Below, in pieces: positions 18,531 through 51,868 of a stretch of 64,000 bases of DNA. The stretch comes from Takakia lepidozioides (Eukaryota > Plantae > Bryophyta). The position numbers and the translations under genes were made by a program. The notes under the pieces were generated by a model, which saw nothing but the letters and a program-made list of their open reading frames with translations, was not told the DNA's origin and did not search any database. The stretch's first letter is position 1. Each line of letters begins with the position of its first letter. The stretch is taken from assembly GCA_030704615.1 (NCBI GenBank), contig CM060732.1:66588001-66652000 (forward strand). Direction: 5' to 3'.

Positions 18531-20810
18531 TTAAGGAAAAGGATTAAAAAAAATTCCAAAAAGGGGAAACGTAAAATTAGGATGGTTGTTAAAGTTAGAG
18601 CAGCTATGGATGAACGTCGGCAGTACGTGCAAGAGGTAACTTCATCCGTGCTGGATGAGCCCAACTCACCTACACCTTCATGCCTACCACTCTCATAAAT
18701 GCATGGACCTACCTATTCATACAGGAGTAAGGTCCACATTCCACATGTATTCTACTTGGTACATACAAATAGGTGCCTACCCACCTACCAACACTATAAT
18801 TATTTTTGTCTAGCCGTCCGTTAAGGGCAGTTGATGCAGATTACTTCATTGTGAGCAAGAAGCCTAAATCCCAGAATCCTGCCCACTCATGCTTCCATCC
18901 CTTACTCGATATTATGTTCGCCCTACTCAGTTTGAGGTTGGGTAGGGGCGTGAGCACAAGCGAATATTAAGGATATTCCTTAGATGCCTTCCGAATATTC
19001 TCCAGCGAAACTAAAATTGAGAAACTAAAAACTTTGAGAAACTTTTTTTAACTGCTCACATAGTAGGCCCTCACAGCATCAAGTAACACCTATACACGAT
19101 AAACATGTTACCATGTAGGCGTGGGCTTTCCTCACCTTATGCGAACCGGATACCCCATAAAAACAAAAAACGAGGTTTTCAGTCCGGGTATCGGCAGTTT
19201 AAGCCCCAGAAAAGTTATTTTTGCACTGAGAAAATAAATCTGAAGGTACTCATATGCACCATGCCTATTAACATGTAATTCCTATGACCGCGGTTTGAAA
19301 ACATTTGACCCCTATGACCGCTGGTTGTGCTCACAGGATACCAACCCCCCTCAGTTTTAGTGCAGCCACATTACATTTCGAGCCCAGATCTGCATCAACT
19401 ATCCCTTAACGTCGTCCTCGAATGATCCTTGAAGGGTTCCGACCTCCAAGGTGGAATGATCCCTCATGGATCGTTCCAAAGTACAACGGACATTTTCAAA
19501 ATGGTCTCGATCGGGTCGGGGGATGCAAATTAAAACAAGTAACCAGGTCCGTCATCCATGAAGACGATCCTGTATCTTTGAAGGTGTATTTTCCTTCCAT
19601 AATGCCACCAGACGGGCTTCCGGCTCGTACATGAAGTAAGGTAATCGTGTGTCCATCACTCCATCACTGCATACATACAATCGATCCAATGTTAGGGCTC
19701 CACATTATGCAGTAATATGGAGGAAGAACCACAAGAATAAAGGGGACAAAAGCCCAAATTGCATTAGCAAATGAAGAAAAAATACCCCCCCCCCCCCCCC
19801 AATGAGCCATGAGGACTTAAAACCTTAAACCCTCCAAAAATCCGAAAATTATCAAAATTTCTTACTGAGTGAACAGGAAAGTCAGTCCCTTTCCACATGA
19901 CAAGGACATATCCCTGAAACCTGGATCTGAGCTCAAATCGTGACACGCGTCCTTTCCAGGTGATGAAACGAGGTATCGCATAGCCGGAATGTGCACGCAC
20001 TGACGTGGCAGTATACGACAGCAAGGGACATCTACTCCGGCACCAGATTCATCACGAGTGGTGTTACTACACGTGGAACAGAAAGTAGGCCAATGGAAGC
20101 ATGTCAGGCTCTGTGGCTTGACAGCATGCCACGTTGCTCTACGCCACCCAGAACCTGTGGACCGTAGCCAACCCGAGAGCGTATCCATACGCACCATTCA
20201 TCCATATGGATCTCCGTCATCCAATGGCAGACCACGACACATACTAAAATAGAATGTGCTCTTATCCTCCACAGGAACCGTTGGATGAGATACGATCCAA
20301 TCCTGTGCGAGAGTTTGAACGGTGGGATGAATACAGTCCTTTCTCGAAAACCGTCCGCATTTGATCTTATCCTTGTCAATGCTCCGATTGGATAGTAATT
20401 TTTCACTTTATCATCGGACGTCCATCGATTGTTTTTCATCGTCGAGGGCCGTCCGATGTGATCTGGCGAGGATAGAAAGCGGTGCAAAGTCAGCAATAGG
20501 GCTTGCGCCTGTTTTTAGTAGCCTACTTGCCTTTAACTCGCATAGGATGAAACGTTTCTGTCATCCTATATCACATCCATCTATACCCTGTGCTTCCAGT
20601 TTTCACACGTGTGAATGTTTGCCACTGATGGATCACTTGTGGAAGATAACTTCTTAAGTCTCTTAAGTGGCACCTTGACTAACTATGGCTATTCAGTTTC
20701 ATTTTTTTCACATTGTGTTAAATTTTGAAGAGATTGTTTTCTCTGAAGAGATTTGGTTTAGGTTTTTATCAGTATTCATTTTATCTTAAATTAAATTAAA
20801 TTCCCCTCAT

Positions 20811-21318
20811 TGTAAAGCCAGATTCTCGTCCACCCCGTTATTCCTCTTCCTCTACGGGTATTGAGCTATCGCAAGGATGTGTGCTCGGTAAAGCAGGCTA
20901 GCGAGATAGCCAGGATCCAACGGAGAGGAGTCAGAATCATTCACATGGATTAACAACACATCCTCACTCACACCTTTTTCATCCAAAACTCACACACAGG
21001 TACACTAGGGTTTACACACCAAACGTACACCGCCGCCTTAAGCGCGTGTTGATCTCTTTTATAAACGAAGGCCCACAATCTCATCTAACCAAGTGGCAAG
21101 CCCTGATTGGTTATTTGGATTCCATCCGGGTATCTGTCCAGATAGGATGTCACCTCATTTTATTTTAGAGATAAACTAGCTGTTAATATAAGACAATACT
21201 TAGTTTAAAAATAGATTGTTTCCAGCTGGTTTCATCCAAGCCCTTTTCCAACGGTCATCATCCAGCGTCTGTTCATCCAAATGTCGAAAAGGTAGGTAGA
21301 AGGAATCTAGCCATTACA
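20811..21318 (-). repeat. 3' LTR of the outer Gypsy element (shared ~500 bp plus a 9-bp terminal segment)
   Basis: 20820-21318 matches 39601-40100. The terminal TGTAAAGCC (20811-20819) is absent from the other LTR but recurs at 21321-21329. Confidence 0.92.
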
Positions 21319-21689
21319 TATGTAAAGCCTCCTGGCACACAGAGAAGCGAGCTCCAGCGAGCTATCTAACAAACATTATGCTCAAGACAGGGAGCAGTGT
21401 CGCTCAAGGTCACACCAAGATAGGATGAAAAAACCGCAACAAGAAAAACTTTGCTCTGCATTTTGAGTGAAGGGCAAAACCTTGTCGGGGAAAAACCCAC
21501 ATGGAGAACTACAAAGAGAAATGAGATGGATCCTAGGTAGGGAGCAGCTGAATAAAAGATAGTGTCATGAGTAAGTCTATGTAGCAACGGAATCAGAATC
21601 AAGCCGAGCACGCTTCTTTGGAGTTAAAGCCACATGACGATTCTCCACGTTGAGGCAGGTCAAATCAACTGCAGCTTAGAAGGGACAAG

Positions 21690-24600
21690 TTGAGAAACAT
21701 GAACTGTCCCTGCAATCTCTGCCGTAGAAAGATGCTGAGGAAGGAGACGGTACTGTCGACCAGGCAGAATCGCATGAATCAGATAAGGCCCATCGATCCG
21801 CATCTTGGATTTGGTCACCTGTTTGTCAGGCTGCAATCAAACACAAACAGTCTGGCCTAGAGAAAAAAATTTAGAGTAAACAACCCTACGGTTATAATTT
21901 CTAGCCTGAGCAACTTGAGAAGCCTGAATGTTGTGTTTAGCAGTCTCTAATAGCAAACGATGAGAAGTGAGGTGAGTAAGAAAGTCTTCCCATATGATGG
22001 GCTCCTCAACCTGAGTTTGAAGCACAGGGACATGAAGAGGGGTGCGAGCCTTGCGGCCATACAAAAATTCAAAAGGGGAAAAGCGAGTGTTGGCATGTAC
22101 CGAGGTCCTGTAGGCAAATATGAGAATGGGTAGAGTAACATCTCATTCTTCAGTGAGAGCCCCGTTCTTTTCTAACAACTGGCACATGGTTTTGTTAAAC
22201 CTCTTGTAAGCCCATTGCACTGGGGGTTGTAGGGAGCAGTCAAGCGATGCTTGACATCTAAATTAAAGCACACAACCTCCATCAGCTGGTTACAAAACTC
22301 CATACCCTAATCAGTTAAAATTTCAAGGGGACAACCATGGCGTAGCAGGATTTCATCAAAGAAGAATTGAACCATCTCGTCACTATCCTTAGCAACCAAT
22401 GGTCGGATCTCAATCCACTTAGACAGATAATCAGTAGCCACATGTAGCTATTGCCCTTAGTCGTAGTTTTGAGGGGTCCAACAAGATCAAGACCAACTCG
22501 GGCAAACATCTCAATCACCGGAATTGGTTGTAATTTAAGAGGAGTTATGGTCCTAGGCAGCAGTGTTTTGGACTTACATGGAACACACTTAGAAATGAAA
22601 TCTGCCACATCTTTAGTTAACCCCTTCCAATGATACTTTTCTTGGAGTCTCTTGACAGTTTTGTCAACGCCTAAATGACCAGCATATAGTGAGCAATGGT
22701 AAAGCTCAAGCAATGCAGGCATAGAGCTCCTAGTACGGACCTCCACGACAGTCTCTTGCCCATGAACATGAGACTACCTTAAGCAACTTACCTTCATGTT
22801 CCCGATGAGAGGGGAGATGATAGCTGACTTGCCTAAGGAGACGGAAAGAGAGGCCCGACAGATGAGTGTTGGTCTTACACTTCTGGAGGAGGGCTTGGTG
22901 AAGTAGGTCCTCCATGGTTGCAGCTGCCATAGCCAGCCCTTGGGTTAGTGTGAGCATAACGGAGTGTCCGCCTCAGTGATCTCCAGGGGAAGACTTTTAG
23001 CTCAACTGGATGACAAGGAAGACTTCATGAAGATGCAACCAAGGACAATGAAGCACATAAACAGATTTCCCTATGGAGAGGATTCAGTGCCAAACCAGAA
23101 CTAGAAGGACAAATGTACAGTTCAATCAGAGAAGAGAGAGAGATATCATACCTAAAATATGACCTCAGTGACAGGATAGCACTCTAAACCAACCTCAACC
23201 AGCAGAAAAGGAAAGCAAATCCCATTCAGACATGAGATCAGGTGGAAGAAAAGGAACAGTGGCAAACAAAGCAAGTAAATCGGATCCGTCAGGAGAGGAA
23301 GAAGGCAAGGGTGAAGCACCAAATGGTAAGCAGTGTGCAAGGTCATCTAAGGTAACATAAGGGGCAGAGGACTTAGTCTCAGTGCATGTGAGAGCATCGG
23401 TATTGCTGTTGGCTTTGCCTTTCTTGTATTCAATGTCGCACTCGAACATTTGAAGAGTAAGTGACCACCGAGCCAAGCGTCCCGAGAGTGCTCGTGGGGT
23501 TTTGAGAGCCTTCAATGGAAGATGATCAGTTTGAATAACAAAGGGGCAGCCATGGAGATACTGCCATAAATGTTTCACCCCAAAAATGACTACAAGGCCC
23601 TCTTTATCAGTGATCTGCTATAGTTCTTTTCATGTTTGTCAAGCCGCCTGGAAGCATAGGCCACCACATGTTCCCTGCCAACTCTCTTTTGGCATAGAAT
23701 AGCTGAAACAGCCAGGTCAGAGGCATCAGTCTGAAGAATAAAGGGCAGTGAAAAATCAAGAAAGACCAAAATGGGTGCACTGGTGAGGGCGATTTTGAGT
23801 TTCTCAAAAGCAATGATTTGGGACCTGCCCCAAAGAAAACGAACATTGCATAACAACTGATTAAGCGCAGCGGCAATGTGAGCAAAGTGTTTAATGAAAC
23901 GACGATAGTAAGAGGCTAACCCAAGGAAAGCACGGACACAATTTTTGTCACGTGGAGCGGGATATTCCCAGACAGTCTGAATTCTGGCAAGGTCAGGGCT
24001 AATGCCTTTAGCTGAGAGAAGGTGGCCAAGAAAATGAAGCTCCGTCATGCACAGATCACATTTCTTGGCTTTCACTTTGAGGCCTGCTCCTCTAAGCCTA
24101 CACAAAACGCGCTTCAGATCCAGCATGTGAGAATCAAAGTCAGCTGAGTAAACGTTGATGTCATCAACTTATACCAATGCACATTCCCAGTGCAAGTTCC
24201 CTAGAACAACATCCATGAGACGTTGAAAGGTGGCAGTGGCATTACATAATTAAAAATGCATGGTTTCAAACTGAAAGAGGCCCATCTTACAGGTAAACGT
24301 AGTTTTCTCCTTGGCTGACTCTGTGAGTAGAACCTGCCATAGGCCTGTAGCAAGATCCAAGGAAGAGAAGAGAGTGGCACCATTGAGTTGATCCAAAGTA
24401 TCATTAATGCGAGGTAAGGGATATACATCCTTTTTGGCTAGGGCATTGAGACGTCGGAAATCAACACAGAAACGGGTGGTACCATCTTTCTTGGCAACCA
24501 ACACGATGGGGTTGGCCTAGGGGGAAATAGAGGGTTTAATAACTCCTGCATCAAGCATCTTGGTCAGTTCAGTTTGCATAATTTTGCGCTCTTTGACACT

Positions 24601-26990
24601 TTCTCTATAAGCATATTGTTTGACAGGGCTAACCAGCACTGAAAACATCAAGATTGTCACGAAGAACATGATATAGACGAGACCTTTCATTGTCAGTGAG
24701 ACTAGAGCCCATTTTGATATCAGTCAGGACCTGGTCAAGATGAGCAGATTGCGCTGGAGTGAGGGGACTGACCTTGGGTGCAGCCACAGATTGTGCCAAG
24801 AGATGCAATTGATCTATAGGATCATCAGACAGGCCAATGTCAGCAAAACTTAAAGCATGTTGCACCTCTCCTAAATCTTTCAATGGGGTGGCAGTGAGTC
24901 GTGCGAGGACCTGACCCTTGCGGATGGTGATAGGTATGCGTTCTGGGTTAGCAACAAGAAGTCTGAGCTCCCCTCGAAAGCCCTGATCTAGCACCCCAGA
25001 TGCAATCAAACAATGTTTGGAAAGCATCAAGCGTTTCCACCCCTCGACTTCAAGATAACGACCTTGTGGACAAAGAAAGGTGAGGCCAAAAGAAACAATC
25101 CTTTGGGAGGAGGCAGGTATAACAAACTCAGTGGGATTGCGAAGAAGAGTGGTGTTACCTGGGATTGGAATGGGAGGGCCACTCTTCTTACCAGGCAAAG
25201 GTAGCTGCCACTGATACAAGGTGGAAGGAGCCGTCTTGGCAAAGTTAAAGTAACGTGTCCAGTTGTATTGCTCGCCAGCCTGCCGTCTCAAGTGTTTCAA
25301 CAACAAGGGTTCGCATGTGGGAGAGATGCGCAGTGGCACAACCAGCGGGCAAGGAGACAGAGTTGAGTTGCACCTTGTGGGGGGAGGAGATGCCACTGGC
25401 AAGCCACATGATGTTTTCAACCACATCAATCTTGGCCCCTGTAGCACACATCCAATCCAAGCCTAACAGCCACTGCTCACCAATGGTAACGATACAAGTC
25501 AGTTTGACCGACTTGCAACTGACCTTAATAGGGATGGTGACCAAACCTAGGGGTCCATAACGTGTGCCATCTGCAATGGTTACCTGCAGACCTGTGGCTG
25601 GAGTGAGTTTGAGACCAAGTAGTTGAACCTCGGACAATGGAACAGCAGACATGGTACAGCATGTGTCAACAACACATGAAAACGATAGGTGTCATATGTG
25701 ACATTGAGTCATGAGAGGGTGCACTCTTTCCCTCCTAAGCTTCCTATTGGCTTCACAATGCATTAATTTGAATTCATTGGACAACATCACAGAAACAATG
25801 GAGTCATCCTTTGCAAGGTTTGTGGGATACTGACCGCTTGGCCCCTTCACAAGCGATCTGGTTCGTTTAAAGGCTATTTGCCCCTCTGTTTGCGTTTAAT
25901 TCGTTTGTGTTCTTCAATCATACCAGGGACAAGAGCGGCATAGGTGCAGAAGCGGATCCAGTGCTCAAGTGACCCACAAATGAAACAGGCCACACGTTTA
26001 CCTTGAACCTCATACCGTGGGCCAGTCTGAGTGTGGCCACGATGAGAGTCAGCAGCAGGAGGCTTTGGCAGGTGCGGCCCTCCAGGATCCTTCTGCCTTG
26101 ACAGCCTGAAGCTGAGTGTGCATTTCTTGTTGTAAGGTCTTAACCTCCTCCAGTAATGTAGGAGAGGCCTCTGTAGAGCCACCCTTAACCATGGCAACCC
26201 CATGAGAACATTCGGAAGTATGTTGATGAGCAGAATGAATAACAGGCAGACAACTTTTGCCTACTTTAGCATTCTTAAACCTCATGCGCTCATCCATCAT
26301 CTCTACCATATGCCTCTCATTGCAATAAGGATGCTTTTGTAGGTAGACTTGATCAGAGGCAGGTAATCTGGTAATGAAATAGGTTTTAAGTATGGCAGTG
26401 CGTTCAGAAGGTACCGGAATGGCCTTGACCACCGTGGTTTTCAAGTCAATGTAGTATTTCCAAATACTATCACCAGGTTGATAAGGACGATCGGGCATGG
26501 TGTAGTTGATGGGCGTGTCTACACGAAACAACTGAAGTGCCAACTGCTTGGCCATTCCCCATCGCAACTCACCCTGATCCTTGATATTAGCTTCAAAGAG
26601 GTCACGAGCCTCACCTTTGAGACAAAAATGAAAAGAATGAGTAATCATAGAAGCTGGCAGCTCATTGAATTTGACACTCATCTCAAAAAAATTGAGGAAG
26701 TTGTCAAAGTCCTCAAGATAAGGCCTTGAGCTTGGTAACTAAGGGCGAACCTACTTGCTTATCCAAAAAGAGCTGCATAAGAGCAGGACAACTAGACAAT
26801 GTAGCCATAGCATCACAAATGCCCTGAATATTGAGGTTAGGCACATTACCAGAGGCTGGAAGGACCCCTGGGGTCGGACTAGTATCATCACCTGGCAGTG
26901 GCTCCTTGGGAGACAAGGTTTCAGACATAGGATCAGGAAGAGTGTCACCATCAACTTATACATCATCAGTAAGATCCACATCATCCAACT
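21690..26990 (-). pseudogene. Gypsy gag-pol of the outer element (gag with zinc knuckle, protease, dUTPase-like, RT, RNase H, integrase), many stops and frameshifts
   Basis: CFICGSLEHWIRFC knuckle; VVDTCC protease site; [10 protein letters not shown]...YPLPRI RT, with YVDD mutated to *VDD near 24170; LQTDASD RNase H; HCSLYAGHLG...CVPC integrase zinc finger; FSPFEFLYGRKARTP. Confidence 0.93.
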
Positions 26991-27067
26991 CATCTAGTAC
27001 ATTCCATGGCTCCTTGCCAAACCGAGTAGTAACGGGCATTGTAGTCTGTCTGTTAAAAACAAAGTGG

Positions 27068-27813
27068 TTACCTTTTGCTTGAGGATCGTGCAGGCCGCAA
27101 TTTGGACTCCCAGTCCTTGATGCAATAGCCACTTATGAATCTGTGTTTGTGAAGCATGTAAACACATTCACCCAGAAAGTGCCACAGTTCTTCGTCCACT
27201 TTGAGCCAGAAAGCCACTCGAACAATGGAGCGGATAAGCTTCTCCTTGGCAAGCAGTGTTTGCACCGGATAATCACTAACAGGAAATCCAGGCAAGTAGT
27301 AACCCAATCTTTCCTGTCTAAACACAATAGCATTGGAAAATCAAAATATCACGCACAGTATGAGGAAAGCGAGAGACGGGAATGCCTGCAACATGGTCAT
27401 CCCAAGTTATGTCCACATTGTAGTCAGGTTTCCAGGTAGGCCTCAGGTTAGCCAAGACAAGAGAACTGCCACCTTTCACCAGCTCCCATAGACGATGCGC
27501 ACTGGGTAAATGGGGCGGAAGGAAGTTCTCGCACTCGCCAGAAACCTCCCCAACTACTATGAACTGCGGAACACCAACTTCAGCCCACGAGAGCCGCCAA
27601 CCCTTCAAGAGCTTGTCTTTGGCCTCAGTTAATGGAAGCTTGCGTGCTATCTCCGCAGCAAAAAAACGTTGCAGGGCCTTGGCCGCTCTGGCCCCTTCAA
27701 ACGTTTGGATGCACTTTCGCCTCTGAACGCTTCTTCTTGCGAAGTGTGGGTGGGCTTCAGACCCTCCAACGCAGCGGTCAACTCAAACTGAGCCACCTAG
27801 TGATCAGAAGGCG
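27068..27813 (-). pseudogene. Extra ORF upstream of gag in the outer element (3' part; 5' part at 39233-39420), unknown function
   Basis: Coding-like frames 27068-27325 and ~27318-27783. The ATG-initiated ORF 39420-39233 (MASSSNPSTDAE...LVLDTP) is cut exactly at the nested insertion site. Confidence 0.55.
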
Positions 27814-28421
27814 TGTTGTGCGCATACATATCGCTACACAACTACATCGCTGTCCAAAACCACACAACATATGTGCACACCACACACTAGTATACCACTA
27901 GTCCAACCACTAGGCTGCCACTATGTTGCCCACTATGGCAGTCACTAGTCCACACAATGATAAAGAAGAAGAATATAAGCACGAGCTCACAAATCTGAAG
28001 CATAAACTCATGCATATATAACCTCATCACTCAAATACAAGTCAAGCCAAGTGCACCCCACGCCATGGGGAATCCACACTACGGCGCCATAGCTAGGCGC
28101 GGTGAGGCTCAACTCGAGAAAGATGAGCCTCCCGCGCTTGCCATGAAGATAACCACTCCAGGGCCTAAATCTGCCTTGACCCCTGGATTGACACTTGGGC
28201 CAATCCCAAATGTCAATATGTAAAAGCTAGCTATTTCCTAGCTAGTTTCACACTAGTGATAAAATAACTTGACAGCTGTCGTGCGCATACATATCGCTAC
28301 ACAACTACATCGCTGTCCAAAACCACACAACATATGTGCACACCACACACTAGTAGACCACTAGTCCAACCACTAGGCTGCCACTATGTTGCCCACTATG
28401 GCAGTCACTAGTCCACACAAT
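27814..28421 (-). repeat. 3' terminal repeat block of the inner element (Y-X-GC-Y; Y=145 bp, X=316 bp)
   Basis: The two Y copies are near-identical; X is near-identical to 38917-39232. Junction palindrome GACAGCTGTC at 28271-28280. Purine-rich AGGGGGGCG (minus strand, 28422-28430) abuts the inner Y. Confidence 0.92.
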
Positions 28422-28689
28422 CGCCCCCCTAGCTGGTGCTTAGGTCCTTCTAAGTCCAGGTAGCCACAAGATGTGATAGTGACCATAGCCTCATTAAGTC
28501 CTCCACCACTATCCCTACTACACTCAAACTCGATAGATCAAGAGATCGGGTACAAGAGTTGTCCCATCGTTAGTCGCCGTCTTGCAACCTGTGAACTTGA
28601 GCTTGGGATCTCATGTATTGACTCCTATGAGTTTGGCCTCCCATGTCTTGTTAGCTACCTCCAGTCATGTCCACTGCCACTATCCCAAG

Positions 28690-29117
28690 CAGTATGGACA
28701 ATCAATCTCCGTCAGGAACCTTCTCAAGAGGTGGTGTCAAGCATCCCATATGCCAACCCCTTGAGCATCGATCACACACCAGCATGGTGGCTGCCCCTTT
28801 GGCAGACCCACAGAGCATGCACCTCAAACCTGCAGGTACCACTGCCAAGTTTGGGTCAACTCTGCCATCGACATTAGGAAGGTGACATGGCGCACAATTA
28901 CGCACATGGTCCTTCCAAGTCATGTCATCCCGACCCTCCAAGATCGGGACCCCTGAGGGCAACACCTCTCGAACCCTCAGAATAACACGCCCTGCAGTAA
29001 CATCCAGAGTCGTAGGAGCAGTCTGCTGCAAATAAACATAGTCACCAGGGTAAACCTCCGAACCCCAGGACGATATCCTCCACCACGTATAGTGGCATAC
29101 CTCAACGTATCACGGTG
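28690..29117 (-). pseudogene. Integrase C-terminal remnant ending in a PHD finger
   Basis: HRDTLRYATIRGGGYRP...CMLCGSAKGAATMLVCDRCSRGWHMGCLTPPLEKVPDGD* (PHD C4HC3 pattern, terminal W mutated to stop), located just upstream of the PPT-like tract. Integrase assignment rests on position. Confidence 0.8.
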
Positions 29118-30013
29118 CCTGTGGCCTTTGGGGTTGTGATGGGCTGTGACATGTGGCCTGTGGGGCTGTGATAGGCTGTGGCCTTTGGGGCTGTGACCCT
29201 GTGACCTTTGTAGGGCTGTGACAGGCTGTGGCCTGTGTGGGGCTGTGACGGCTGTGACCAATGAGCTGTGTGGGCCTGTGCTGGTCTGTGGTGGCCCGTG
29301 TTGACCTATGGACGGCCTGTGCTGACTCGTGGAGGCACTGGTGGACTGCCTAAGGACTGGTATGTGGTCTTGAAGGCCGAATTTTGAAGCTCGTGGAGGG
29401 CAATTTGAGGAGTATCTTCATGATATTCCCATGGTCATGCAAGTGAGGGAAGAGAGGAGAGGAAGAGTGTTGGGATGAGGGCATGCTAGGGTTAGGCATT
29501 GCTTTAGCTTCTCTTCCTCGTAGTTTCCACCCTCTCATTAGGCCAAGACCTTTCCGTAGGTGGAGGCAAGAGTCAGTACGGGTTTGGGCTGGGGTGTCCT
29601 TGCAGGAGCAACACCGTGGAGTTGTTTTTGGTGTGGGGGAGTTGTCGTTCTGATTTCTTGTGTTTGGATCCCCTCCATACCTGCATGCTTGACTGTGCGC
29701 CATGCTAGTTTTGTGTGGGCGCTTGTTTTTATAGGTGATTGGTCCGGATTTGATCACCGGCCAGTCCTAGAGCATGCTGTCGATGGTGAGGCTGGGGTGA
29801 TGACCAGCCAGACCATCATTGTTTCTCCTGTGGTGAGGTTGGAGGTGATGACCAGCCAACCATAGGAGTGCTTGGGGTGGATGCAAGTACAGGTGTAGGC
29901 TATGTTAGGAACTTAGTATTCCAAACCATAAGCCGCAACAGGTTCTTTACCTGGTTACCTTGTGGAGAGGGGGTTAGGGACATGTTCATGACCGGCTGAG
30001 TGTCAACACGGAA

Positions 30014-33000
30014 GTGCCACTAGTTGCTGGGGACAATGCCGGTTCGAGCACTAGTGATACTAGTGGGTACACGAGACCAGGTGTGCGGTTTAGGCCACCT
30101 TCACCTCCTGTGTCTTCTACGGAAGGTTCTGATTCGGATTGTGAATCAGGAGGACTCATACCGGCGGTGCAAGTTGTTTCTTTGCCATTGTTGTGGGACA
30201 CAATGGAGGAGATGTATGGAGCTACCAAGGGGCCACGAAGGTACTCTGGGGCGGTGGGCACCATCGAGTTGGATGATTTTATCCAAGAGTTTGATAGTTG
30301 GTGTGATTTGCAGCAAATGCGCAATCCACAACTATTTACGCCTTTCATGGCATGGAAGGGACTATTTCAGCACCTTGAGGGGCCGCCTATAGATGATTAC
30401 CATGAGTTCAGGCGGGGGCATGAGGTTGAGATCGAGGAGTGGAGGATGTACTGGTCACCCGACTATGTCTCCATCACTAGGGGCACTAGAGCCACGAGGG
30501 CAGTGGCTACACCTGCCGCTGTACCGGCAGCTTCAGCAAGTAGCAGTGGGACTAGTGGGACTGGTGGTATAGTAGCTACGACGTCCACCCAAGCCACTAC
30601 CGCACCAGCACTAGTACCCGTGCCTCCTTTCAACCCTGTTGTGGAGTTCTTCGAAGAGTTGAGAGAGAACTACCAAGGGGTGAGGACAGAGAAGTTGCGA
30701 AGCTTGCAAGAGTTCCAACGGAAGCCGACCGAGAGCTTGAGGGAGGCTTTCACTCGCATGAGGCGCTTGATAAATGTAACCCAAGGGGTTACGGAAGCTC
30801 AGGCAGTCCAATTCTAGTATGGGATATTGAACAAGGAGCTGAGGAGAAGGGTGCGGGATGCAACTCTCCTACAAACGGCCCAACCCACCTTAGCAAATGT
30901 GTTTTTGCTGGCAGAGCAGATAGAGCTCAACATGGTGGAGGAACGAGTGGTCATGGTGGGATTTGCTAAGGAGACACCATGGGGTAGTGGTGCTCCTAGC
31001 CAACCACTACCTCAACGTGCTCAAGGCAACAAGGGGGCTCAGGTGAAGCTCAGGGAAGGGCAGAGAGGACCTCAGATGCAGGGGTCTCTCCCTTCATTTG
31101 CTGGCCAACAACGGGCGGATGTGGTGTGCTGGACATGTAGAGGACCCCATATCAAGAAGGATTGCCCAGAGGGAGGCAAAGGGCCAGCACATGCACAGCC
31201 TGCACAATTGCAGTGTGGGCATTGTGGCAAGCACGGGCATGGAGAGGCCCAGTGTTATGGTTTGCATCCTGAGTTGCGCCCAGGCCACTTCCAAGGGAAC
31301 AATGGTGGTCGGGGGCGAGGTGGAGCAGCCCAGAGAGGACGAGGTGGCCAGCCACGAGGTGTAGGCCAAGGGCAAGCTCAACATGGCCAAGGACGCGGAG
31401 GTCAGGGTGTTGACTAAGGCATGGCCAACCGGCTTCAGCAGCTAGAGCAGAGGCTCGCTGCCATGGCTACAGCTCAGGTGATACCGGCTCTAAGGCCGGA
31501 TGGTCCACCTCCTGCTCCTGAGGGAGGAGATATGGGAGGCATGAGATCTTGTGGAGCAGCACTACCACTAGTGCAGGTGGAGTCTGCTGCAGCCATGACT
31601 CGAGGAGCAGCACGAGTTCCTGAGCCACGAGGTGCAGAGGTGGAGTTGGATCCACAGCGTGAGGAGACAAGCCGTCAGGCTAGGCTTCCTCAGTCGTTCA
31701 CATTGGCGGAGACAGTGTCGACGCCATCCATGGCACCTAGTTCTCGCCCGACTATTACCGAGGCGGAGGTTACTATGCCATTGGGGAGAGCTACACGGGT
31801 AGCACCACTACCTAGTATTGCCAAGGCTACGGCAGCTAGTGTGCTACTAGGAGCGGCCACATCTGTGTGCCAGGCTCCATTGTTCTCGGCTACCATGATT
31901 GCGACGCTGGGGGTAAGAGCAGCTGAGGTGTTCAGGCTGGCAGCTACACTCTGTGAGAGTGGGGAGGTTACTTCATCTTCTGCGGAGATAGTGGGAGGTG
32001 GAGTGTCGGAGGGATCCTTGGATTTAAGGGTCAAGACTGCCACGGCGGCGCCATGGCAAGCTGCAGTTGTCAGGTTGATGGAGCTGCCAGCTAGGCCAGC
32101 CATTGAGCGCGCCATGGTGACACCTGGAGTTGTCATGTTAGACAACCAGGATGGCATTTTCTGTTTGAGTGGACTGGCAGGCAAGAGGTACCGGCCACTG
32201 CGGGTCTTGTTGGACTCGGGAGCTCAGCCATTGATGTTGGGCAGAGCTGCTATTGCAGGCTTGGGCCTCACGGAGGCGGATATGGAGCCTTGTCCTTTCC
32301 AGATACAGACGTCTCTGGGAGGATTGGAGCAGGCTCGGGGCATGACACGGCGTGAGTTGGCTATCAGACTACGGCCGGATCACCCTACAGATGGCTCAGT
32401 GATGCGAGCCAAGGCCATTGTGACAGACGCGGTGTCGTACGATGTCCTGGTTGGTGGGGCAGTATTGTACCCCATGGGCTTCACCCTGGATTTTTGGGAG
32501 GAGTCAGCTTCCTATAGGCCTTGATGGCAGTCAGGGGAGGGCCGGCATGTGCAGCTCCCTGTGACGTTTATAGGAGGAGTTGTGGTTGCCAAGCGAGGCA
32601 AGATGCCGACATTAGCAGCATTCACAGCTGCAGTGAGTTGGCCTAGAGAGTTGCTTGAGGGCAACGCTCATTTAGAGGATGTGCCACCTCCGCGAGAGCA
32701 GGATGACATGTATAATATGGCGAAGTTGCCTACCATGGTTGCTCAGACTCCATTGTGGGGCACGAACAAGGATTTGCAGCGGGATGCTGATCGACGGGTG
32801 CAACAAGCCTGGGTGGAGGCTTTTGTACCGTCAGGAGAAGAGGAGAGTACGGGGATTGCACCAGGACCACCTCAGTTGTCTCCATTGGACACCACACCTA
32901 TTGTGTGGTAGTATCCGGATGAAGGCATTTGTCTTCTGGACTTGTTTGGCGGGATCACCACCGGATTGGCTGCTCTGTTACAGGCAAGTGTACGAGTTCG

Positions 33001-33091
33001 GCGTTACCTGTATGTGGAGAGGGATGAGACTGCACGGCGCATTTCACTTCGCCATCTTGCTCAGTTGGTGCAGCGGTACCCTGAGTTGTTG
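30014..33091 (+). pseudogene. Inverted copy of gag - zinc knuckles - aspartic protease - start of C5 DNA methyltransferase
   Basis: One frame interrupted by single stops ending at 30817, 31417, 32524 and 32911. Motifs: FQRKPTESLREAFTRM (gag), CWTCRGPHIKKDC, CGHCGKHGHGEAQC, LLDSGA protease, then LLDLFGGITTGLAALLQASVRVRRYLYVERD (DNMT motif I-II). Confidence 0.85.
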
Positions 33092-35875
33092 TCCCCGCAC
33101 TCTGCACATCTCCTGATGGTACAAAAACCTCCACCCAGGCTTGTTGCATCTGTCGATCAGTAGCTTGCTGCAAATCCTTGCTCGTACCCCACAATGAAGT
33201 GTGAGCAACCATGGCAGGCAACTCCGCCGTACCATACATATCATCTTGCTTTGCTGGAGGTGGCACATCCCCTGCATAGACATTGCCCTCCAGCAACTCT
33301 CCAGGCTAGGTCACTGCAGCTGTGAATGCTGCCAGTGTCGGCATTTTGCCTTGCTGGGCAACCGCAACTCCTCCTATGAACGTCACAGGGAGCTGCACAT
33401 GCCGGCCCTCCCCTGACTGCCATCAAGGCCTATAGGAAGCTGACTCCTCCCAAAAATCCAAGGTGAAGCCCATGGGGTACAACACTGCCCCACCAACCAG
33501 GACATCGTACGACACCGCGTCTGTCACAATGGCCTTGGCTCGCATCACTGAGCCATCTGTAGGGTGATCCGGCCGTAGTCTGATAGCCAACTCACGCCGT
33601 GTCATGCCCCGAGCCTGCTCCAATCCTCCCAGAGACGTCTGTATCTGGAAAGGACAAGGCTCCATATCCGCCTCCGTGAGGCCCAAGCCTGCAATAGTAG
33701 CTCTGCCCAACATCAATGGCTGAGCTCCCGAGTCCAACAAGACCCGCAGTGGCCGGTACCTCTTGCCTGCCGGTCCACTCAAACAGAAAATGCCATCCTG
33801 GATGTCTAACATGACAACTCCAGGTGTCACCATGGCGCGCTCAATGGCTGGCCTAGCTGACAGCTCCATCAACCTGGCAGCTGCAGCTTGCCATGGCGCC
33901 GCCGTGGCAGTCTTGACCCTCAAATCCGAGGATCGTTCCGGCACTACACCTCCCACTATCTCCGCAGAAGATGAAGTAACCTCCCCACTCTCACAGAGTG
34001 TAGCTGCCAGCCTGAACACCTCAGCTGGTCTTACCCCCGGCGTCGCAATCATGGTAGCCGAGAACATCAAAATCTAGTGTGCCGTGAAACAAAGCATAGT
34101 GTTGGAGATGACACTTGGTAAATATGGCATAGTAACCTCCGCCTCGGTAACAGTCGGGCGAGAACTAGGTGCCATGGATGGCGTCGACACTGTCTCCGCC
34201 AATAAGAATGGCTAAGGAAGCCTAGCTTGACGGCTTGCCTCCCCACGCTGTGGATCTAACTCCACCTCTGCACCTCGTGGCTCAGGAACTCGTGCTGCTC
34301 CTCGAGTCATGGCTGCAGCAGACTCCACCTGCACTAGTGGTAGTGCTGCTCCACACATGAATCCCATGCCTCCCATATCTCCTCCCTCACGAGCAGGAGG
34401 TGGACCATCCGACCTTAGAGCCGGTACCACCTGAGCTGTAGCCATGGCAGCGAGCCTCTGCTCTAGCTGCTGAAGCCGGTTGGCCATACCTTGGTCAACA
34501 CCCTGACCTCCGCGTCCTTGGCCATGTTGAGCTTGCCCTTGGCCTGCACCTCGTGGCTGGCCACCTCGTCCTCTCTGGGCTGCTCCACCTCGCCCCCGAC
34601 CACCATTGTTCCCTTGGAAGTGGCCTGGGCGCAACTCAGGATGCAAACCATAACACTGGGCCTCTCCATGCCCGTGTTTGCCACAATGCCCACACTGCAA
34701 TTATGCAGGCTGTGCATGTGCTGGCCCTTTGCCTCCCTCTGGGCAATCCTTCTTGACATGGGGTCCTCTACATGTCCAGCACACCACATCCGCCCGTTGT
34801 TGGCCAGCAAATGAAGGGAGAGACCCCTGCATCTGAGGTCCTCTCTGCCCTTCCCTGCCCCCTTATTGCCTTGAGAACGTTTAGGTAGTGGTTGGCTAGG
34901 AGCGCCACTACCCCGTGGTGTCTCCTTAGCAAATCCCACCATGACCACTCGTTCCTCCACCATGTTGAGCTCTATCCGTTCTGCCAGCAAAAACACATTT
35001 GCTAAGGTGGGTTGCTTGTAGGAGAGTTGCATCCCGCACCCTTCTCCTCAGCTCCTTGATCCCATACCAGAATTGGACTGCCTGAGCTTCCGTAACCCCT
35101 TGGGTTACATTTATCAAGCGCCTCATGCGAGTGAAAGCCTCCCTCAAGCTCTCGGTCGGCTTCCGTTGGAACTCTTACAAGCTCCACAGCTTCTCTGTCC
35201 TCACCCCTTGGTAGTTCCCTCTCAACTCTTCGAAGAACTCCACAACAGGGTTGAAAGCAGACACGGGTACTAGTGTTGGTGCGGTAGTGGCTTGGGTGGA
35301 CGTTGTAGCTACTGTACTACCGGTCCCACTAGTCCCACTGCTACTTGCTGAAGCTGCCGGTGCAGCGGCAGGTGTAGCCACTGCCCTCGTGGCTCTAGTG
35401 CCCCTAGTGATGGAGACATAGTCGGGTGACCAGTACATCCTCCACTCCTCGATCTCAACCTCATGCCCCCGCCTGAACTCATAGGCGGCCCCTCAAGGTG
35501 CTGAAACAGCCCCTTCCATGCCATGAAAGGCGTAAATAGTTGTGGATTGCGCATTTGCTGCAAATTACACCAACTATCAAACTCTTGGATAAAATCATCC
35601 AACTCGATGGTGCCCACCGCCCCAGAGTACCTTCGTGGCCCCTTGGTAGCTCCATACATCTCCACCATTATGTCCCACAACAATGGTAAAGAAACAACTT
35701 GCACCGCCGGTATGAGTCCTCCTGATTCACAATCCGAATCAGAACCTTCCGTAGAAGACATAGGAGGTGAAGGTGGCCTAAACTGCACACCTCGTCTCGT
35801 GTACCCACTAGTATCGCTAGTGCTTGAATCGGCACTGTCCCCAGCAACTAGTGGCACCTCCGAGGTGACACTCAA
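33092..35875 (-). pseudogene. gag - zinc knuckles - protease of the inner element in native orientation, frameshifted
   Basis: Reverse-complement homologue of 30014-32855 with several indels and a filler substitution at ~34066-34125. Confidence 0.85.
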
Positions 35876-36539
35876 CCGGTCATGAACATGTCCCTAACCC
35901 CCTCTCCACAAGGTCACCGGGTAGAGAACCTGTTGTGGCTTATGGTTTGGAATACTAAGTTCATAATATAGCCTACACCTGTATCTGCATCCACCGCAAG
36001 CACTCCTATGGTTGGCTGGTCATCACCTCCAACCTCACCACAGGAGAAACAATGATGGTCTGGCTGGTCATCACCCCAGCCTCACCATCGACAGCATGCT
36101 CTAGGACTGGCCGGTGATCAAATCCGGACCAATCACCTATAAAAACAAGCGCCCACACAAAACTAGCATGGCGCATAGTCAAGCATGCATATATGGAGGG
36201 GATCCAAACACAAGAAATCAGAACGACAACTCCCCCACACCAAAAATAACTCCACGGTGTTGCTTCTGCAAGGACACCCCAGCCCAAACCCGTACTGACT
36301 CTTGCCTCCACCTACAGAAAGGTCTTGGCCTAATGAGAGGGTGGAAACTACGAGGAAAAGAAGCTAAAGCAATGCCTAACCCCAGCATGCCCTCATCCCA
36401 ACACTCTTCCTCTCCTCTCTTTCCTCACTTGCATGACTTTGGGAATATCATGAAGATACTCCTCAAACCGCCCTCCACGAGCTTCAAAATTCGGCCTTCA
36501 AGACCACATGCCAGTCCTTAGGCAGTCCACCAGTGCCTC

Positions 36540-37495
36540 CACGAGTCAGCACAGGCCGTCCACAGGTCAACACGGGCCACCACAGACCAGCACAGGCCCA
36601 CACAGCTCACAGGTCGCAGCCGTCACAGCCCCACACAGGCCACAACCTGTCACAGCCCTACACAGGTCACAGGGTCACAGGGTCACAGCCCCACAGGCAC
36701 AGCCTGTCACAGCCTGTCACAGCCCGTCACAGCCCCACAGGCCACTGGGCACAGCCGGACACAGCCCGCCACAGCCCCACAGAGCACATGACACAGCTTG
36801 TCACAGCCCCTCACAACCTGTCACAGCTCGCCACAGCCTGTCACTAGGCACAGCCTGTCACAGCCCTACACAGGTCACAGGGTCACAGCCCCACAGCCGC
36901 AACCTGTCACAGCCCCAAAGGCCACATGTCACAGCCTGTCGCAGCCCATCACAACCCCAAAGGCCTCAGGCACAGCCTGTCACCCCTACAAAGGTCACAG
37001 GGTCATAGCCCCAAGGGCCACAGCCTATCACAGCCCCTCACAGCCCCATAGGCCACAGGGCATAGCTTGTCACAGCCGTCCACAGCCCGTCACAGCCCCA
37101 CAGGCCACATGGCACAGCCTGTCACAGCCCTTATAGCCCGTCACAACCCCACAGGCCCATAGGGCACAGCCTGTCACAGCCCCTTATAGCCCGTCACAGC
37201 CCCACAGGCCACAGGGCACAGTCCCTCACAGCCCGCCCGTCACAGCCCCACAGGCCACTGGGCACAGCTTGTCATAGCTCGTCACAGCCCATCACAGCCC
37301 ATCACGGCCACAGCTCGCCACAGCTTGTCACAGCTTGTCCGATCCCGTCACAGTCCACAGGCCACAGGGCACAGCCTGTCAAGCCCCTCACAGCCCGTCA
37401 CAGCCCCACAGGCCACTGGGCACAGCCTGTCACAGCCCCCTCACAGCCCATCACAGCTCGCCACAGCTGTCACAGCCCCACAGGCCACTCATGAC
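36540..37495. repeat. Degenerate minisatellite of ~9-10-bp GTCACAGCC(C/T)/CCACAGG units in the inner element's 5' leader
   Basis: Dozens of imperfect CACAG-containing units; shorter inverted copy at 29118-29340. Confidence 0.9.
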
Positions 37496-38916
37496 AGTTT
37501 AGCCATTTCTCCAAGGGGTTTAGCCACGCCAAACTAGGGTTTGTGTCTCTTGGACTCTAGGCTTCTTTGCACCGAGCTATGGCGGCTGTGAAGAAATCAG
37601 CAATGTATTCTTGCTCTTTCGGCTCCCACACACCACCAATAGTAGCCCTAAGCCATGAGGAAGATGGTTGCCACAAACCAAGCCTTCTTTCTCACTTAGA
37701 CTCCCCAAACACGCCACTAAACTCAATGGCAAACAACCAAGCCTTGCTGGTTTCCAGCCCTGTGGGCACTCATTCAAGCGTTTCCCTTGGCCATAACATC
37801 TGTCTTAGAGCCTATTCCAGCCCCCTACACCTGCCACTTCAAGAGCCATGCTCTATCTAGGCTTGAGGTTAAAACCCCAACTCAGAACACGCTCTACAAG
37901 TGTCGGACTATCACATAAGAGCAAATCAGCCCCTTACCTTCTCTTCTAGTTCTCTAAAGCTTGAAAACAAAAGCCCAATAGACTGAAGGCATGCTCCACA
38001 CATGCCCCACTCTCACCACCAGAGAATCAGCCCCTTTGCTTTCTTTCTTGCATCCACCAACCTGAAAATACACGCTTCAGCGGGCTGGAAGCATGCTCCA
38101 CACATGCCCTACAGGGAAACCAACCCTTTCCTTCCTTTCTTGCTTGCCCTCCAAGCTTGAAGATGGAAGCTTCAATGAGCTGAATACATGCTCCACACAT
38201 GCAACCTCTTCACACAAGAGGTATCAGCCCCCTATCTTGGCTCGTTAGATCCTTGATGCTCTCTAAGACAAGACTAAGTAGTCCACAGCCCTTGCCAAGC
38301 TCCTGAAACCCTAAGGCTTACATTTCCAGCCACAAGACACTCCTCTTGTGGTGCAAGAGCTCTTCTTCCAAGCTCTGAAACCCTAGGTGCACATTCCATG
38401 GCCTTGCCGCACCTCTTAGCTCCTGTTCCAGCCCTGCTCTTGCCATGACAAGAGCCTTCTCAATGCTGAAGCTCGATATTGAAACCCACTCTCAACATAC
38501 TCCACAAAGTGCACTGATTTGCCCCAAGCCAAATCAGCCCTTTCGCTTGGTCTTGCAATCCTCACACAATGAAAGCTCGCATTCCCAAGTCCAGTTCTCA
38601 GCTTTGCACCAAAGCCCTATAACCTGCTCTTGACTGGTCCTCTTCCCAATCGTGCTTGCTCATGCATGTACACAATCTAAAACCATCAAGGTGCTCTGGA
38701 ATTACCTGCAGCATGGTGCTTTCATCTCTGAAGCTGAAGATCGAATGCCAAGGTCTACCGCCTCGTAACCCACATCGCCTCCCGCTTCTAACAACCAAGA
38801 GCTCCACGGTGCTCCTTGCATGACAACCTGGTTTCTCTCATTCTCAAGCAAAAACCACAAGTGCTACAACTAACTCGTATCTGGCACTCACAGATACGAG
38901 CTCATCTTTCTCGAGT

Positions 38917-39232
38917 GATAAAGAAGAAGAATACAAGCACGAGCTCACAAATCTGAAGCATAAACTCATGCATATATAACCTCATCACTCAAATACAAGT
39001 CAAGTCAAGTGCACCCCACGCCATGGGGAATCCACACTACGGCGCCATAGCTAGGCGCGGTGAGGCTCAACTCGAGAAAGATGAGCCTCCCACGCTTGCC
39101 GTGAAGATAACCATTCCAGGGCCTAAATCTGCCTTGACCCCTGGATTGACACTTGGGCCAATCCCAAATGTCAATATGTAAAAGCTAGTTATTTCCTAGC
39201 TAGTTTCACACTAGTGATAAAATAACTTGACG
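38917..39232 (-). repeat. 5' terminal repeat (X) of the inner element
   Basis: Near-identical to 27959-28274. On its internal side lies a 17-nt tract (38900-38916) complementary to 39070-39086. Confidence 0.92.
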
Positions 39233-39591
39233 GGCGTGTCGAGGACCAATTCAGGGCGTTCAACCGGAGCACCAAGAGGCGGATAATCAATTTCAACCAC
39301 CAGGCTAGGATCAACTGAAGCACGCACGATGCTGGCAAAAATCAACTCAAAATGACCAGCGGGATTTTCTTTGTACGCATTAAGCTCAGCGTCAGTTGAA
39401 GGATTAGAAGACGAGGCCATTGCCGCAGGTTACAAAAACGCAAGCAGATACTGTGAAAGCCAGGAGCAAGCAAAAACACGAGCGAGAACTGAAATAGTAG
39501 AGCGCCGCCATGGCAAGAGTGTCAGTGTACAGCTACCTGACGTACAAAGAAGGAATGTGCAGCTAATGATTAATAAAATCCTGCAACCCCT

Positions 39592-39600
39592 TCTCCACCA
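39592..39600 (-). promoter_or_regulatory. Probable tRNA-Ala primer-binding site of the outer element
   Basis: TGGTGGAGA immediately follows the 5' LTR on the sense strand, complementary to a ...UCUCCACCA tRNA-Ala-type 3' end (9-nt match only). Confidence 0.6.
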
Positions 39601-40100
39601 AGATTCTCGCCCACCCCGTTATTCCTCTTCCTCTACGGGTATTGAGCTATCACGGGGATGTGTGCTCGGTAAAACAAACTAGCAAGATAGGCAGGATCCA
39701 ACGGAGAGTAGTCAGAATCATTCACATGGATTAACAACACATCCTCACTCACACCTTCTTCATCCAAAACTCACACACAGGTACACTAGGGTTTACACAT
39801 CAAACGTACACTGCCACCTTAAGTGTTGTTTTTATCTCTTTTATAAACGAAGGCCCACAATCTCATCTAACCAAGTGGCAAGCCTTGATTGGTTATTTAT
39901 ATTTCATTCGGGTGTCTGTTCAGATAGGATGCCACCTCATTCTATTTTAGAGATAAACTAGCTGTTAATATAAGACAATACTTAGTTTAAAAATAGATTG
40001 TTTCCAGCTGGTTTCATCCAAGCCCTTTTCCAACGGTCATCATCGTGCGTCTGTTCATCCAAATGTCGAAAAGGTAGATAGAAGGAATCTAGCCATTACA
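39601..40100 (-). repeat. 5' LTR of the outer element (lacks the terminal GGCTTTACA, so no CA before the PBS)
   Basis: Matches 20820-21318. The sense strand starts TGTAATGGCTAG and ends ...AGAATCT directly into TGG. Confidence 0.92.
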
Positions 40101-40527
40101 TCATTCATGAAATTTTTTGCGCCTAATAATAAAATCAATCAATCAGAAAATTAGGCATGTTTTGAAAACAATTTCTCAAATTAGGCATCTTCATCCTATT
40201 ATTTTTTTAAATTAGGCACATGAGAAGAGAAAACATTTATTTTCTGGTCATTGGGTACACTGGTTTTCAAATTGGTATGCTGGTGCATGGTGAAACCTCT
40301 TACACAATGGTACTCTTGAGTTGTGGTAGGCTGGTAGGCTAGTTATTTTCGCAAGCATATATTTGTATTCATTTTTGTTCAAAGAAATTTTGATCTTATT
40401 ACAAACAACATGAGAAGAGGCTTGCAAGTATTTTGGTGGAATTTTTGGGCATTAGGCACTTTAGTCCCATAATTTCCGTTGTTTGAGAACAGCGGAGCCC
40501 TGACAAATTTTATTAATAAAAAATAAC

Positions 40528-42143
40528 TCAGGAAAAAACAACCATAAGGATGATAAAGGAGACACTGCCCCGTGGCCAAATCTGAGAGAGGCTGCAGGAG
40601 ACTAAGGATGAGTAGGTCCATAGCAGCGAGACAAGACTACAGAGGCTCATTGATTCTGCATCCAGAGGATTCAAACGAGAGGTGAACTTTGGATTTGCCC
40701 TTTCTGGAGGTTCTCTTATGCATCCAATCCCTATCTGATTCTTCCTGCTCCATAGATAGTTGGGCGCTAGTGGAGCTGCCAACATGGCGGGATGCCGTCG
40801 TTCCAGACAATCGATGAGTCTGATGTCCTTGTGCAGATGATGTTCCCTTTCCCCAGGCGTTATCAAAGCCAGTGAAAAGCTGTTATCTCCTTCGTTGCGC
40901 ACATCGAGGCAGTCTCCCACCATTTTATCTGGCCAAATCTGAACTGTGATAGGTATCAGGGTGGATGTCCATGCCCTTTTCCAGGAAAGCAGTGGGAATG
41001 GTGGAGGTGCCCCATTCTGCCATCCTGCATACTCTTAGTTTTAAATCATTATAAGAACAGTCAAACTCCCGTATCATATCTCCAAAGCCCCTACATGCTT
41101 GAAGAAGAAAAGGGTCTGTCCACCAGGACAGGGTTGCGGCTACGCATAACAAAAGTTACAAACTGCTTCGATCATCTACTTTCAGGTTAAACTGTCTCTA
41201 TATTTGAGTGGGAGCCTTTGATACCCATTGTATTGTCGTATTATCGATCTTGAATCGAGTTATCTCTGCTTTGACCCAATCTAGAGCATGGTCAACTGCG
41301 AGTTTCCAGTGGGAACCACTTGTAGGCAGCTCAGTTTTGCCAACCCCCAATAAGGACCTCCTCCATTTGCTTATGTCTAAAGCATGGTCACCATCGACTT
41401 TGCAGCGGGAACCATTTGTGGGCAGCTGAGCTTCCATACACAGAGGAAGGAAACTCCGCAACGACAAATATAGGTCATAGCCAACATGAGCAGGACAATA
41501 CAATGAATAGGTTGGTACCAGCCTATACATACAGGAGTGGCTCCAAAACACTTGCAGCTTGTGACCTTCAGGCAGACTTTCATATGCTAACCATGACTAA
41601 TCAAGCAGATTAAACCTGGCAGATATATCACAGCGAAAAGGATATCCAACAGGGTTACAGCGCAATCAAATACAGCCTTATGCAATGGATGGAAAGAGGA
41701 AGAGTGCATGAACATTCCAGCATATCCGGAAGGAGCTCATCGAGGGAGGAGGGATGTAGATTACAGTACTGTATGGCCATAAAACAAACCTCTTTGAGCA
41801 AGATTTGTATAGTTTCTACTCAGATAGCCAGTGAAGGACACAGTTTTACAGGCCTATGCCTACCTTAGGTGTTCCTTGAGACTGGGGAGGCGTCATAGAC
41901 ATCACTTGCAAGGATCTGGGGCATGGCATTGCCAACCTGGAAACTCATATTCAGCTCCACAGTCAGGTCCGACAACTCTTCTGCATGATGTGAGTCACCG
42001 TAGGGAGAATGGAGGGCCTTGAGTGTGGCATCTCCGAGCAAGAGAGCAGCCATTCCTGTGCCTCCAGACAAGCGGAAGTAACACAGACCAAAGAAAGGCC
42101 AGACTACTGCATCTACATTCCTACCTTCATCCATACTGTACAT
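40528..42143 (-). pseudogene. Decayed coding sequence of unknown family downstream of TAF15b
   Basis: Chain of protein-like ORF pieces (41865-42143, 41198-41551, 40925-41152, 40528-40923) separated by stops and frameshifts; partly duplicated at 6500-7440. Confidence 0.4.
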
Positions 42144-51700: not shown

Positions 51701-51863
51701 TGTGTGAAGGGCTTTCTAAAAGGAATCTGGAAAGCCTGAACTAATGTTTATAACACGGTAAGTCCTACTACTGGAGTGAGCCCCTCATGTCTGTTCCCTC
51801 TTGTTCTGCTGGGCACGGGCAAGGTCTGTGGCCACAAGGCTATGATAAGCAACTTCTCAGGAG

Positions 51864-51868
<5 letters not shown>

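Follow-up and report, generated by a model that had tools for sequence, protein, structure and literature searches.

The question raised by a stretch of 64,000 nucleotides from the bryophyte Takakia lepidozioides (GenBank assembly GCA_030704615.1, contig CM060732.1, positions 66,588,001 to 66,652,000 of the forward strand; this whole stretch is called the window below) is how two Gypsy-type retrotransposons, one nested in the other, came to carry their terminal repeats in a permuted order. Both elements are read on the minus strand and all coordinates are window positions. In place of one long terminal repeat (LTR) at either end, each element reads target-site duplication (TSD), X, internal region, Y, a 2-bp spacer (NN), X, Y and TSD. 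Our favoured reading, to which we assign a probability of about 0.55, is that both elements would be inserted from a free circle with two LTRs, opened by a DDE integrase at a CA-NN-TG attachment (att) site that lies inside the LTR.

Re-reading of the letters and comparison of the window with itself bore out this layout in both elements, as a preliminary description of the window had proposed it. Self-comparison placed three repeat pairs where they were expected, namely 20820-21319 with 39601-40101 (94%) in the outer element, and the inner X pair 27958-28273 with 38916-39231 (98%) and Y pair 27814-27958 with 28277-28421 (99%); self-BLAST found no similarity between the X and Y of one element and those of the other, also in agreement with that description. 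The outer element begins with the TSD ATGA (40101..40104; TCAT on the plus strand) and a 500-bp X1 (39601..40100) that starts TGTAA and ends without CA, and its distal side consists of a 9-bp Y1 (21321..21329) preceded by a weak purine run, the spacer TA (21320-21319), X2 (20820..21318), a 9-bp Y2 ending TTTACA (20811..20819) and the second ATGA (20807..20810). Outer X1 and X2 are identical at 469 of 501 columns, and the 9-mer Y has exactly two occurrences in the 64 kb window, which are Y1 and Y2. The inner element begins with CGCC (39233..39236; GGCG on the plus strand) and X1 (317 bp, 38916..39232), and ends with Y1 (144 bp, 28277..28420), the spacer GC (28276-28275), X2 (27958..28274), Y2 (27814..27957) and the second CGCC (27810..27813). 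Its X copies differ by seven transitions and its Y copies by two changes in 145 columns. Lengths of 316 and 145 bp had been given for the inner X and Y; one A at the X|Y joint (27958/27957) can be assigned either way, giving 317/144 or 316/145 bp.

The TSDs were confirmed as first reported, and the att junctions are indeed perfect palindromes through the 2-bp spacer, of 10 bp in the inner element (GACA-GC-TGTC, 28271..28280) and 12 bp in the outer (TTACA-TA-TGTAA, 21314..21325). The statement that no CA precedes the primer-binding site (PBS) held for the outer element and failed for the inner, whose X ends TTTATCA and, taken alone, resembles an ordinary TG..CA LTR. The inner window copy begins CG rather than TG, with C in place of the first T, and TG is restored by the first base of the X-start loose-end rows in all four public sequencing runs compared. 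Judged by the hallmarks of Ty3/Gypsy elements, TG..CA termini (apart from this C) and a short TSD are present, the inserted copy is not framed by a pair of complete, matching LTRs, and a primer site beside the 5' repeat with a polypurine tract (PPT) beside the 3' repeat is present in the inner element, the outer having a TGG-type site and a weak PPT. Terminal repeats have diverged by about 2% in the inner element and about 6% in the outer, which agrees with the nesting order. A 5-bp TSD would fit both window copies and was rejected, since the base preceding the 4-bp repeat is not A in four of seven relatives; these relatives thus settle the TSD at 4 bp, which the window alone does not. A scan of the window for further PPT-plus-att layouts and long direct repeats gave no third element.

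The PBS and PPT of an LTR element fix the ends of its complementary DNA (cDNA), and their positions bear out the earlier claim that Y-NN-X is the LTR unit bounded by them. The 16-nt PBS of the inner element (38900..38915) is flush with the end of X1 and perfectly complementary to a stretch 146 nt inside X (39071..39086), the predicted 5' end of the RNA and hence a self-primer; the best of 2000 shuffles gave 11 nt, and RNA from the predicted start folds into the expected primer duplex (z -5.9). Among nine relatives with a visible 5' end, this complementarity beat at least 198 of 200 shuffles in five, was marginal in two and was absent in two. On the other side the PPT AGGGGGGCGA (28421..28430), a G-rich tract that is also seen in relatives, ends flush at the start of Y1. 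Because the PBS is flush with the X end and the PPT with the Y start, the inner cDNA would by standard LTR biology be Y-NN-X...Y-NN-X with the att palindrome within U3 (the unique 3' region of the LTR), X representing proximal U3, R and U5 and Y distal U3. The candidate primer site of the outer element, TGGTGGAGA (39592..39600, read from 39600), is one that we take to resemble the complement of the 3' end of tRNA-Ala, and a self-priming match for it reaches 5 nt at best. Self-priming of the Tf1 type has also been predicted for Tcn1 elements (PMC6317226; published accounts are cited throughout for the parts of them available).

Contigs of public sequencing runs were aligned to 38700-40400 (24 of 495 rows listed) and to 27770-28500 (14 of 237), and counts from them refer to the rows listed. 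Diverse loose flanks at the inner X start were found in 31, 17, 16 and 3 contigs, with agreement values of 0.47, 0.38, 0.43 and 0.71, from three runs of one sample and one run of another study; some of these loose ends are the internal Y-NN junction and the rest differ from each other. At the inner Y end, loose ends that vary from contig to contig were seen in 25 contigs of one run (X4; agreement 0.37, median 255 letters), and a run of another study (X5) gave one contig with a loose end. Of 600 stretches picked out by a scan of metagenome contigs, 568 proved to be relatives, the best 80 of which were used. Grouping by flanks reduced the 55 loci with a scorable last Y end to 38 insertion sites, all of which end at the Y end and none at the X end. 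X-Y stands before the flank in 16 of them (Y-NN-X-Y, with Y1 deleted in one), Y only in 21, and one is mixed. The mixed site has its long form in locus L039 (7606-8171) and its short form in L079 (11795-11907). Wherever the 5' end is visible, at nine sites, the element begins with X and no Y precedes it. The 25 loci left unscored end too early, are cut by other sequence, have no recognised repeat (L017, L019, L059, L009), or are the fold-back discussed below and L030, in which X runs on into the PBS as a collapsed repeat would.

Both ends were visible at seven sites, three of the long and four of the short form, and a 4-bp TSD was exact in six and had a single mismatch in the seventh, as expected from the prediction that independent TSDs flank the att half-sites. 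The half-sites themselves are conserved (GACA or close to it, then TGTCA), and the predicted invariance of CA-NN-TG stood only in this respect, the spacer varying among GC, AC and AT in relatives. With many different flanks at X start and Y end in the public contigs and with 38/38 and 9/9 sites in relatives, the predicted recurrence of the inner layout was confirmed, and the ordinary symmetric LTRs that would have spoken against it were found at none of the 38 inner-clade sites. The layout is a family trait of the inner element and a clade-wide departure from the LTR layout. For the outer family, one contig of about 88% identity from another study crosses X1 and the PBS without a gap, and another contig stops 9 letters past the X end. 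Exact junction patterns had no match in metagenome or viral contigs, and protein scans found no relatives in viral contigs.

Copy-to-copy indels had been predicted for the X|Y joint, and they proved to be the exception rather than the rule, present at two of 12 sites in one subfamily and in one contig labelled organism B. In that subfamily ten of the 12 joints are flush, the X-end CA running directly onto the Y start; one of the others (L031) carries an insert of 19 letters whose last three are the CGA found at the end of the PPT, and the last (L043) has one extra letter. The organism B contig spans Y-X-NN-Y, and its three extra joint letters are the first two bases of the PBS and the last base of the PPT. 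Such remnants resemble end-joining scars and would be expected if cDNA ends were joined before their primers had been fully removed. Summed contig depth across the joint, about half that inside X, was given no weight, depth being no copy number. At a single site (L012, identical with L014), Y-NN-X and the PBS are followed by an inverted X that runs back to its start and ends at the inverted half-site before unrelated DNA (L012:3246-3878), the other end lying outside the locus. This one case suggests that the att half-site determines where an insertion ends, irrespective of the adjoining sequence, and it is possibly an inserted fold-back cDNA, an origin to which only the junction points, since the inverted arm and its own X2 share no derived letters.

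By its domain content the integrase is DDE-type, as had been claimed. The outer copy contains the integrase core family rve (E 1e-8, profile search with X placed at one stop). So does the full-length metagenome relative L035, which besides rve encodes reverse transcriptase (RT), RNase H and a PHD finger. For the inner PHD region 35 protein relatives were found, 27 of them with rve. These relatives are 43-83% identical, the named ones coming from Marchantia, Calypogeia and Sphagnum, and the D, D, E motifs are intact in an alignment of inner-clade relatives. No tyrosine recombinase, which in intact copies would have told against the proposal, was detected in 34 window open reading frames (ORFs), 23 ORFs of L035 or the 35 protein relatives. 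The inner window copy retains gag, protease and the integrase C-terminus with its PHD finger and has no RT, RNase H or integrase core. The Ty3/Gypsy pol order of RT, RNase H and DDE integrase is present in the outer copy and, for the inner clade, in the proteins P0140 and P0150 and in L035. A chromodomain was found neither in inner-clade proteins nor in L035, a PHD finger following the integrase instead. A cytosine methylase domain was detected in the pol of P0150 (E 5e-8) and weakly in L035 (E 4e-4, 5627-6094, between protease and RT); the corresponding stretch is mostly deleted in the inner window copy, and the profile search of window ORFs gave no methylase match in the outer element.

A quick, unrooted RT-RNase H tree of 66 rows (the outer copy, 48 of the 120 matches listed, 11 PHD-clade proteins and six loci) separated the PHD clade from the outer copy by a branch with support 98; on its side of that branch the position of the outer copy is not settled. 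The inner copy, whose own RT is gone, is tied to the PHD clade by its remaining parts. Judged from these sequences the outer and inner elements are separate lineages, because the outer copy lies across the support-98 branch from the PHD clade.

In the mechanism that we favour, the RNA would begin inside X and the minus strand would be primed just after X, by self-priming in the inner family and probably by a tRNA in the outer. Priming of the plus strand at the PPT before Y would then give linear Y-NN-X...Y-NN-X, the X end and Y start of which would be end-joined, usually flush and sometimes with primer remnants or filler. The integrase would pass over the cDNA ends and act on the att site of the upstream LTR, cutting both strands after CA and inserting the DNA with loss of NN. 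The inserted copies have this form, X-internal-Y-NN-X-Y with TG..CA ends and a 4-bp TSD. Short X-internal-Y copies could come from one-LTR circles, from cutting at the half-sites of both LTRs or from later recombination between Y copies, and would be dead ends since they are without a 3' copy of R. The preliminary description had proposed a circle cut internally by a DDE enzyme; layout, ends at the att half-sites and integrase type support the cut, and the same product could be reached by several routes, the free circle among them.

Several observations weigh against the free circle. All of the evidence comes from inserted copies, circle and cDNA not having been observed. The mirror form X-Y-NN-X-internal-Y, expected from a symmetric circle, was seen at none of the nine visible 5' ends, four of which belong to the long form or probably do, and the short form at 21 of 38 sites plus the mixed one was unforeseen by a simple circle model. 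Mirror forms, whose 340-bp X copies lie side by side, may have been lost by recombination between these copies, in which case some short forms would come from them; alternatively, their absence may reflect a route that favours the upstream LTR. The short form may partly be assembly collapse, and the mixed site fits collapse or recombination alike. Joint indels never reached 10% in two many-contig runs of organism A, a result which together with the 10/12 flush joints also fits a joint copied from the parent element. Among the 14 of 237 rows listed, none has its loose ends at the X end or at the Y start of the inner element, a weak negative, and the six rows listed for one run (X1) include no Y-end row. 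Support from the outer family is thin, consisting of single contigs, and the outer PPT is weak. Lastly, the circle-integration model was abandoned for retroviruses (PMC11054761).

In a rival account the same internal att site would be used without a free circle, the integrase opening the upstream LTR of linear cDNA and inserting both halves while host repair joins the original ends, or the joint would come from an end-to-end jump of the reverse transcriptase or from head-to-tail cDNA dimers. The product and the joint scars would be identical, and the lack of mirror forms could follow from the upstream LTR presumably becoming double-stranded first. With ten of 12 joints flush, the repair of a double-strand break inside a new insertion would have to be mostly correct, and we consider this route unlikely, though a serious competitor. 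A more doubtful possibility is replication in the manner of PAT and Ngaro, in which the RNA would start in X1 and reach into Y2, the parent's joint would be copied, the internal Y-NN-X would act as template for circle closure and the integrase would merely stand in for the recombinase. PAT, Ngaro and VIPER have their repeats in the order A1-B1-A2-B2 (PMC4157794, PMC6681497), and the mostly flush joints would suit this route; against it, the conserved primer site flush with X1 and the PPT flush with Y1 place the cDNA ends at X end and Y start, and three joints carry primer-like letters, a sign that joints are formed afresh.

Insertion of a circle by a tyrosine recombinase, supplied in trans or by intact copies, is hardly credible: split direct repeats otherwise mark elements of that kind (PMC4157794) and the inner copy lacks the middle of pol, but the searches given above yielded no match to the recombinase family, and a DDE enzyme suits both the loss of NN and the varied TSDs of 4 bp; according to the same source, recombinase elements make no TSD. 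The layouts could also be one-off rearrangements of ordinary elements, the inner LTR being X alone with a chance duplication of Y and the outer 5' LTR having lost its last 9 bp. Age and damage are evident in both copies, and in the outer family letter-level evidence from many copies is lacking; for both elements together we regard the explanation as very improbable. Its standing differs between them, being negligible for the inner element, where 0/38 sites ending at the X end refute it for the clade, and improbable without being negligible for the outer, where the contig of about 88% bridges X1 and PBS gaplessly, the other stops 9 letters past the X end, and the 9-mer also precedes the spacer.

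It had been left open whether the route was unreported; the layout has been noted in passing for Klebsormidium (PMC5890265) and probably for Chlamydomonas (PMC9940879). A figure legend for KnitGypsy-Dnmt3 of Klebsormidium nitens (de Mendoza et al. 2018, PMC5890265) mentions DIRS-like repeats with Gypsy domains, a combination found here as well, the likeness being drawn by description and not by sequence. Given the cytosine methylase domain in pol of the inner-element relatives P0150 and, weakly, L035, the Klebsormidium element probably belongs to the clade of the inner element. That account, in its available part, is one sentence without att site, PBS/PPT mapping, TSD or mechanism. The second case, Gypsy-7a_cRei of Chlamydomonas reinhardtii (Craig et al., PMC9940879; bioRxiv 10.1101/2022.06.16.496473), is an active Gypsy element that carries a PHD finger. 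Its left LTR stops 8 bp short of the end of the right one, comparable to the 9 bp missing in the outer element (PMC9940879), and the available preprint text reports no solo LTRs (10.1101/2022.06.16.496473). This element is likened here by description only, and the part of the paper available mentions neither an upstream copy of the 8 bp nor a mechanism (PMC9940879).

The split direct repeats A1...B1-A2-B2 are shared with PAT, Ngaro and VIPER (PMC4157794, PMC6681497). Unlike those elements, which are characterised by a tyrosine recombinase without integrase and by the lack of a TSD, the elements described here have a DDE integrase, TG..CA ends, a 2-bp spacer lost on insertion, a 4-bp TSD, and a PBS and PPT. 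Foamy virus integrase can cut a CA-N-TG palindrome in a circle, leaving processed ends (PMC1180852); there and in retroviruses the cut falls at the LTR-LTR junction and the provirus keeps the order of the linear cDNA (PMC1180852, PMC11054761), whereas here the site is inside U3 and the copy is circularly permuted. In the inner element only, self-priming replaces the tRNA primer as in the Tf1/Sushi and Tcn1 chromoviruses (PMC6317226, PMC2864245), which differ in having ordinary paired LTRs and a chromodomain (PMC6317226, PMC2864245), the inner clade having a PHD finger after the integrase. No description of this integration route was found in the literature searched, from which subscription journals, Repbase reports and theses were excluded; the layout has been noted in passing, and no explanation of it was found in that literature.

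The accepted substrate of retroviral-type integrases is linear cDNA processed at its ends (PMC11054761), and whole families that insert from inside the LTR would require internal cleavage and end-joining. We put at even odds the wider interpretation that at least two separate Gypsy lineages shifted the att site away from the cDNA ends to a place within U3 and depend on the joining of those ends for a replicable copy, that they are natural cases of the integration from 2-LTR circles once proposed and then dropped for retroviruses, and that they represent a stepping stone from paired LTRs to the split repeats of tyrosine-recombinase elements, active Gypsy-7a_cRei using the same route. This would reopen the question of circle integration in a natural system, which the active algal element may make testable, and it suggests how split direct repeats could arise out of ordinary LTRs. 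These elements would be overlooked or wrongly trimmed by LTR finders whose search rule asks for a matched pair of TG..CA repeats flanked by a TSD (PMC6317226), though the inner family is very abundant in the public runs compared.

The remaining parts of the two elements are rearranged or decayed. In the inner element, the 5' leader with a tandem array of 10-bp units is followed by decayed gag and protease of the integrase-PHD clade (33092..38899, minus strand); the array is GC-rich, of about 10-bp units, and occupies 36591-37490. An inverted duplicate of leader, gag and protease on the plus strand (29118..33091), 94% identical, stands in place of RT, RNase H and the integrase core, and the integrase C-terminal region with the PHD finger follows with a broken frame (28705..29117, minus strand). 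The arms of this inverted duplication (29118-36748) are 94% identical, compared with 98% for the terminal repeats, so that the rearranged form without pol may be older than this insertion and was perhaps moved in trans; alternatively, a hairpin may decay faster. In the outer element the decayed gag-pol (21687..26738, minus strand) has many stops and frameshifts and contains dUTPase, RT, RNase H, an H2C2 zinc finger and the rve integrase core in Gypsy order. Its dUTPase lies between protease and RT (24632-25462, minus strand), and dUTPase within Gypsy pol has been described from fungi (PMC2864245). The dUTPase ORF had no longer protein relative at E 0.001 and no match in the 80 metagenome loci, and for this reason no full-length outer relative was obtained.

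Elsewhere in the window, two long ORFs at 11446-14172 on the minus strand had no Pfam match and, to judge from their motifs, resemble exons of a CHUP1-type chloroplast positioning gene, a sign of a land plant. Two inverted copies of an unidentified repeat, about 84% identical, lie at 5613-7531 and 41188-43003, the latter adjoining an ORF with RRM and RanBP zinc-finger matches. Also present are the CACTA-type transposase domains Transposase_21, DUF4218 and DUF4216 followed by five units of about 250 bp (55397-60990), and an ORF for an endonuclease like that of long interspersed nuclear elements together with a zinc-knuckle ORF at 51849-53315 and 62162-63373.

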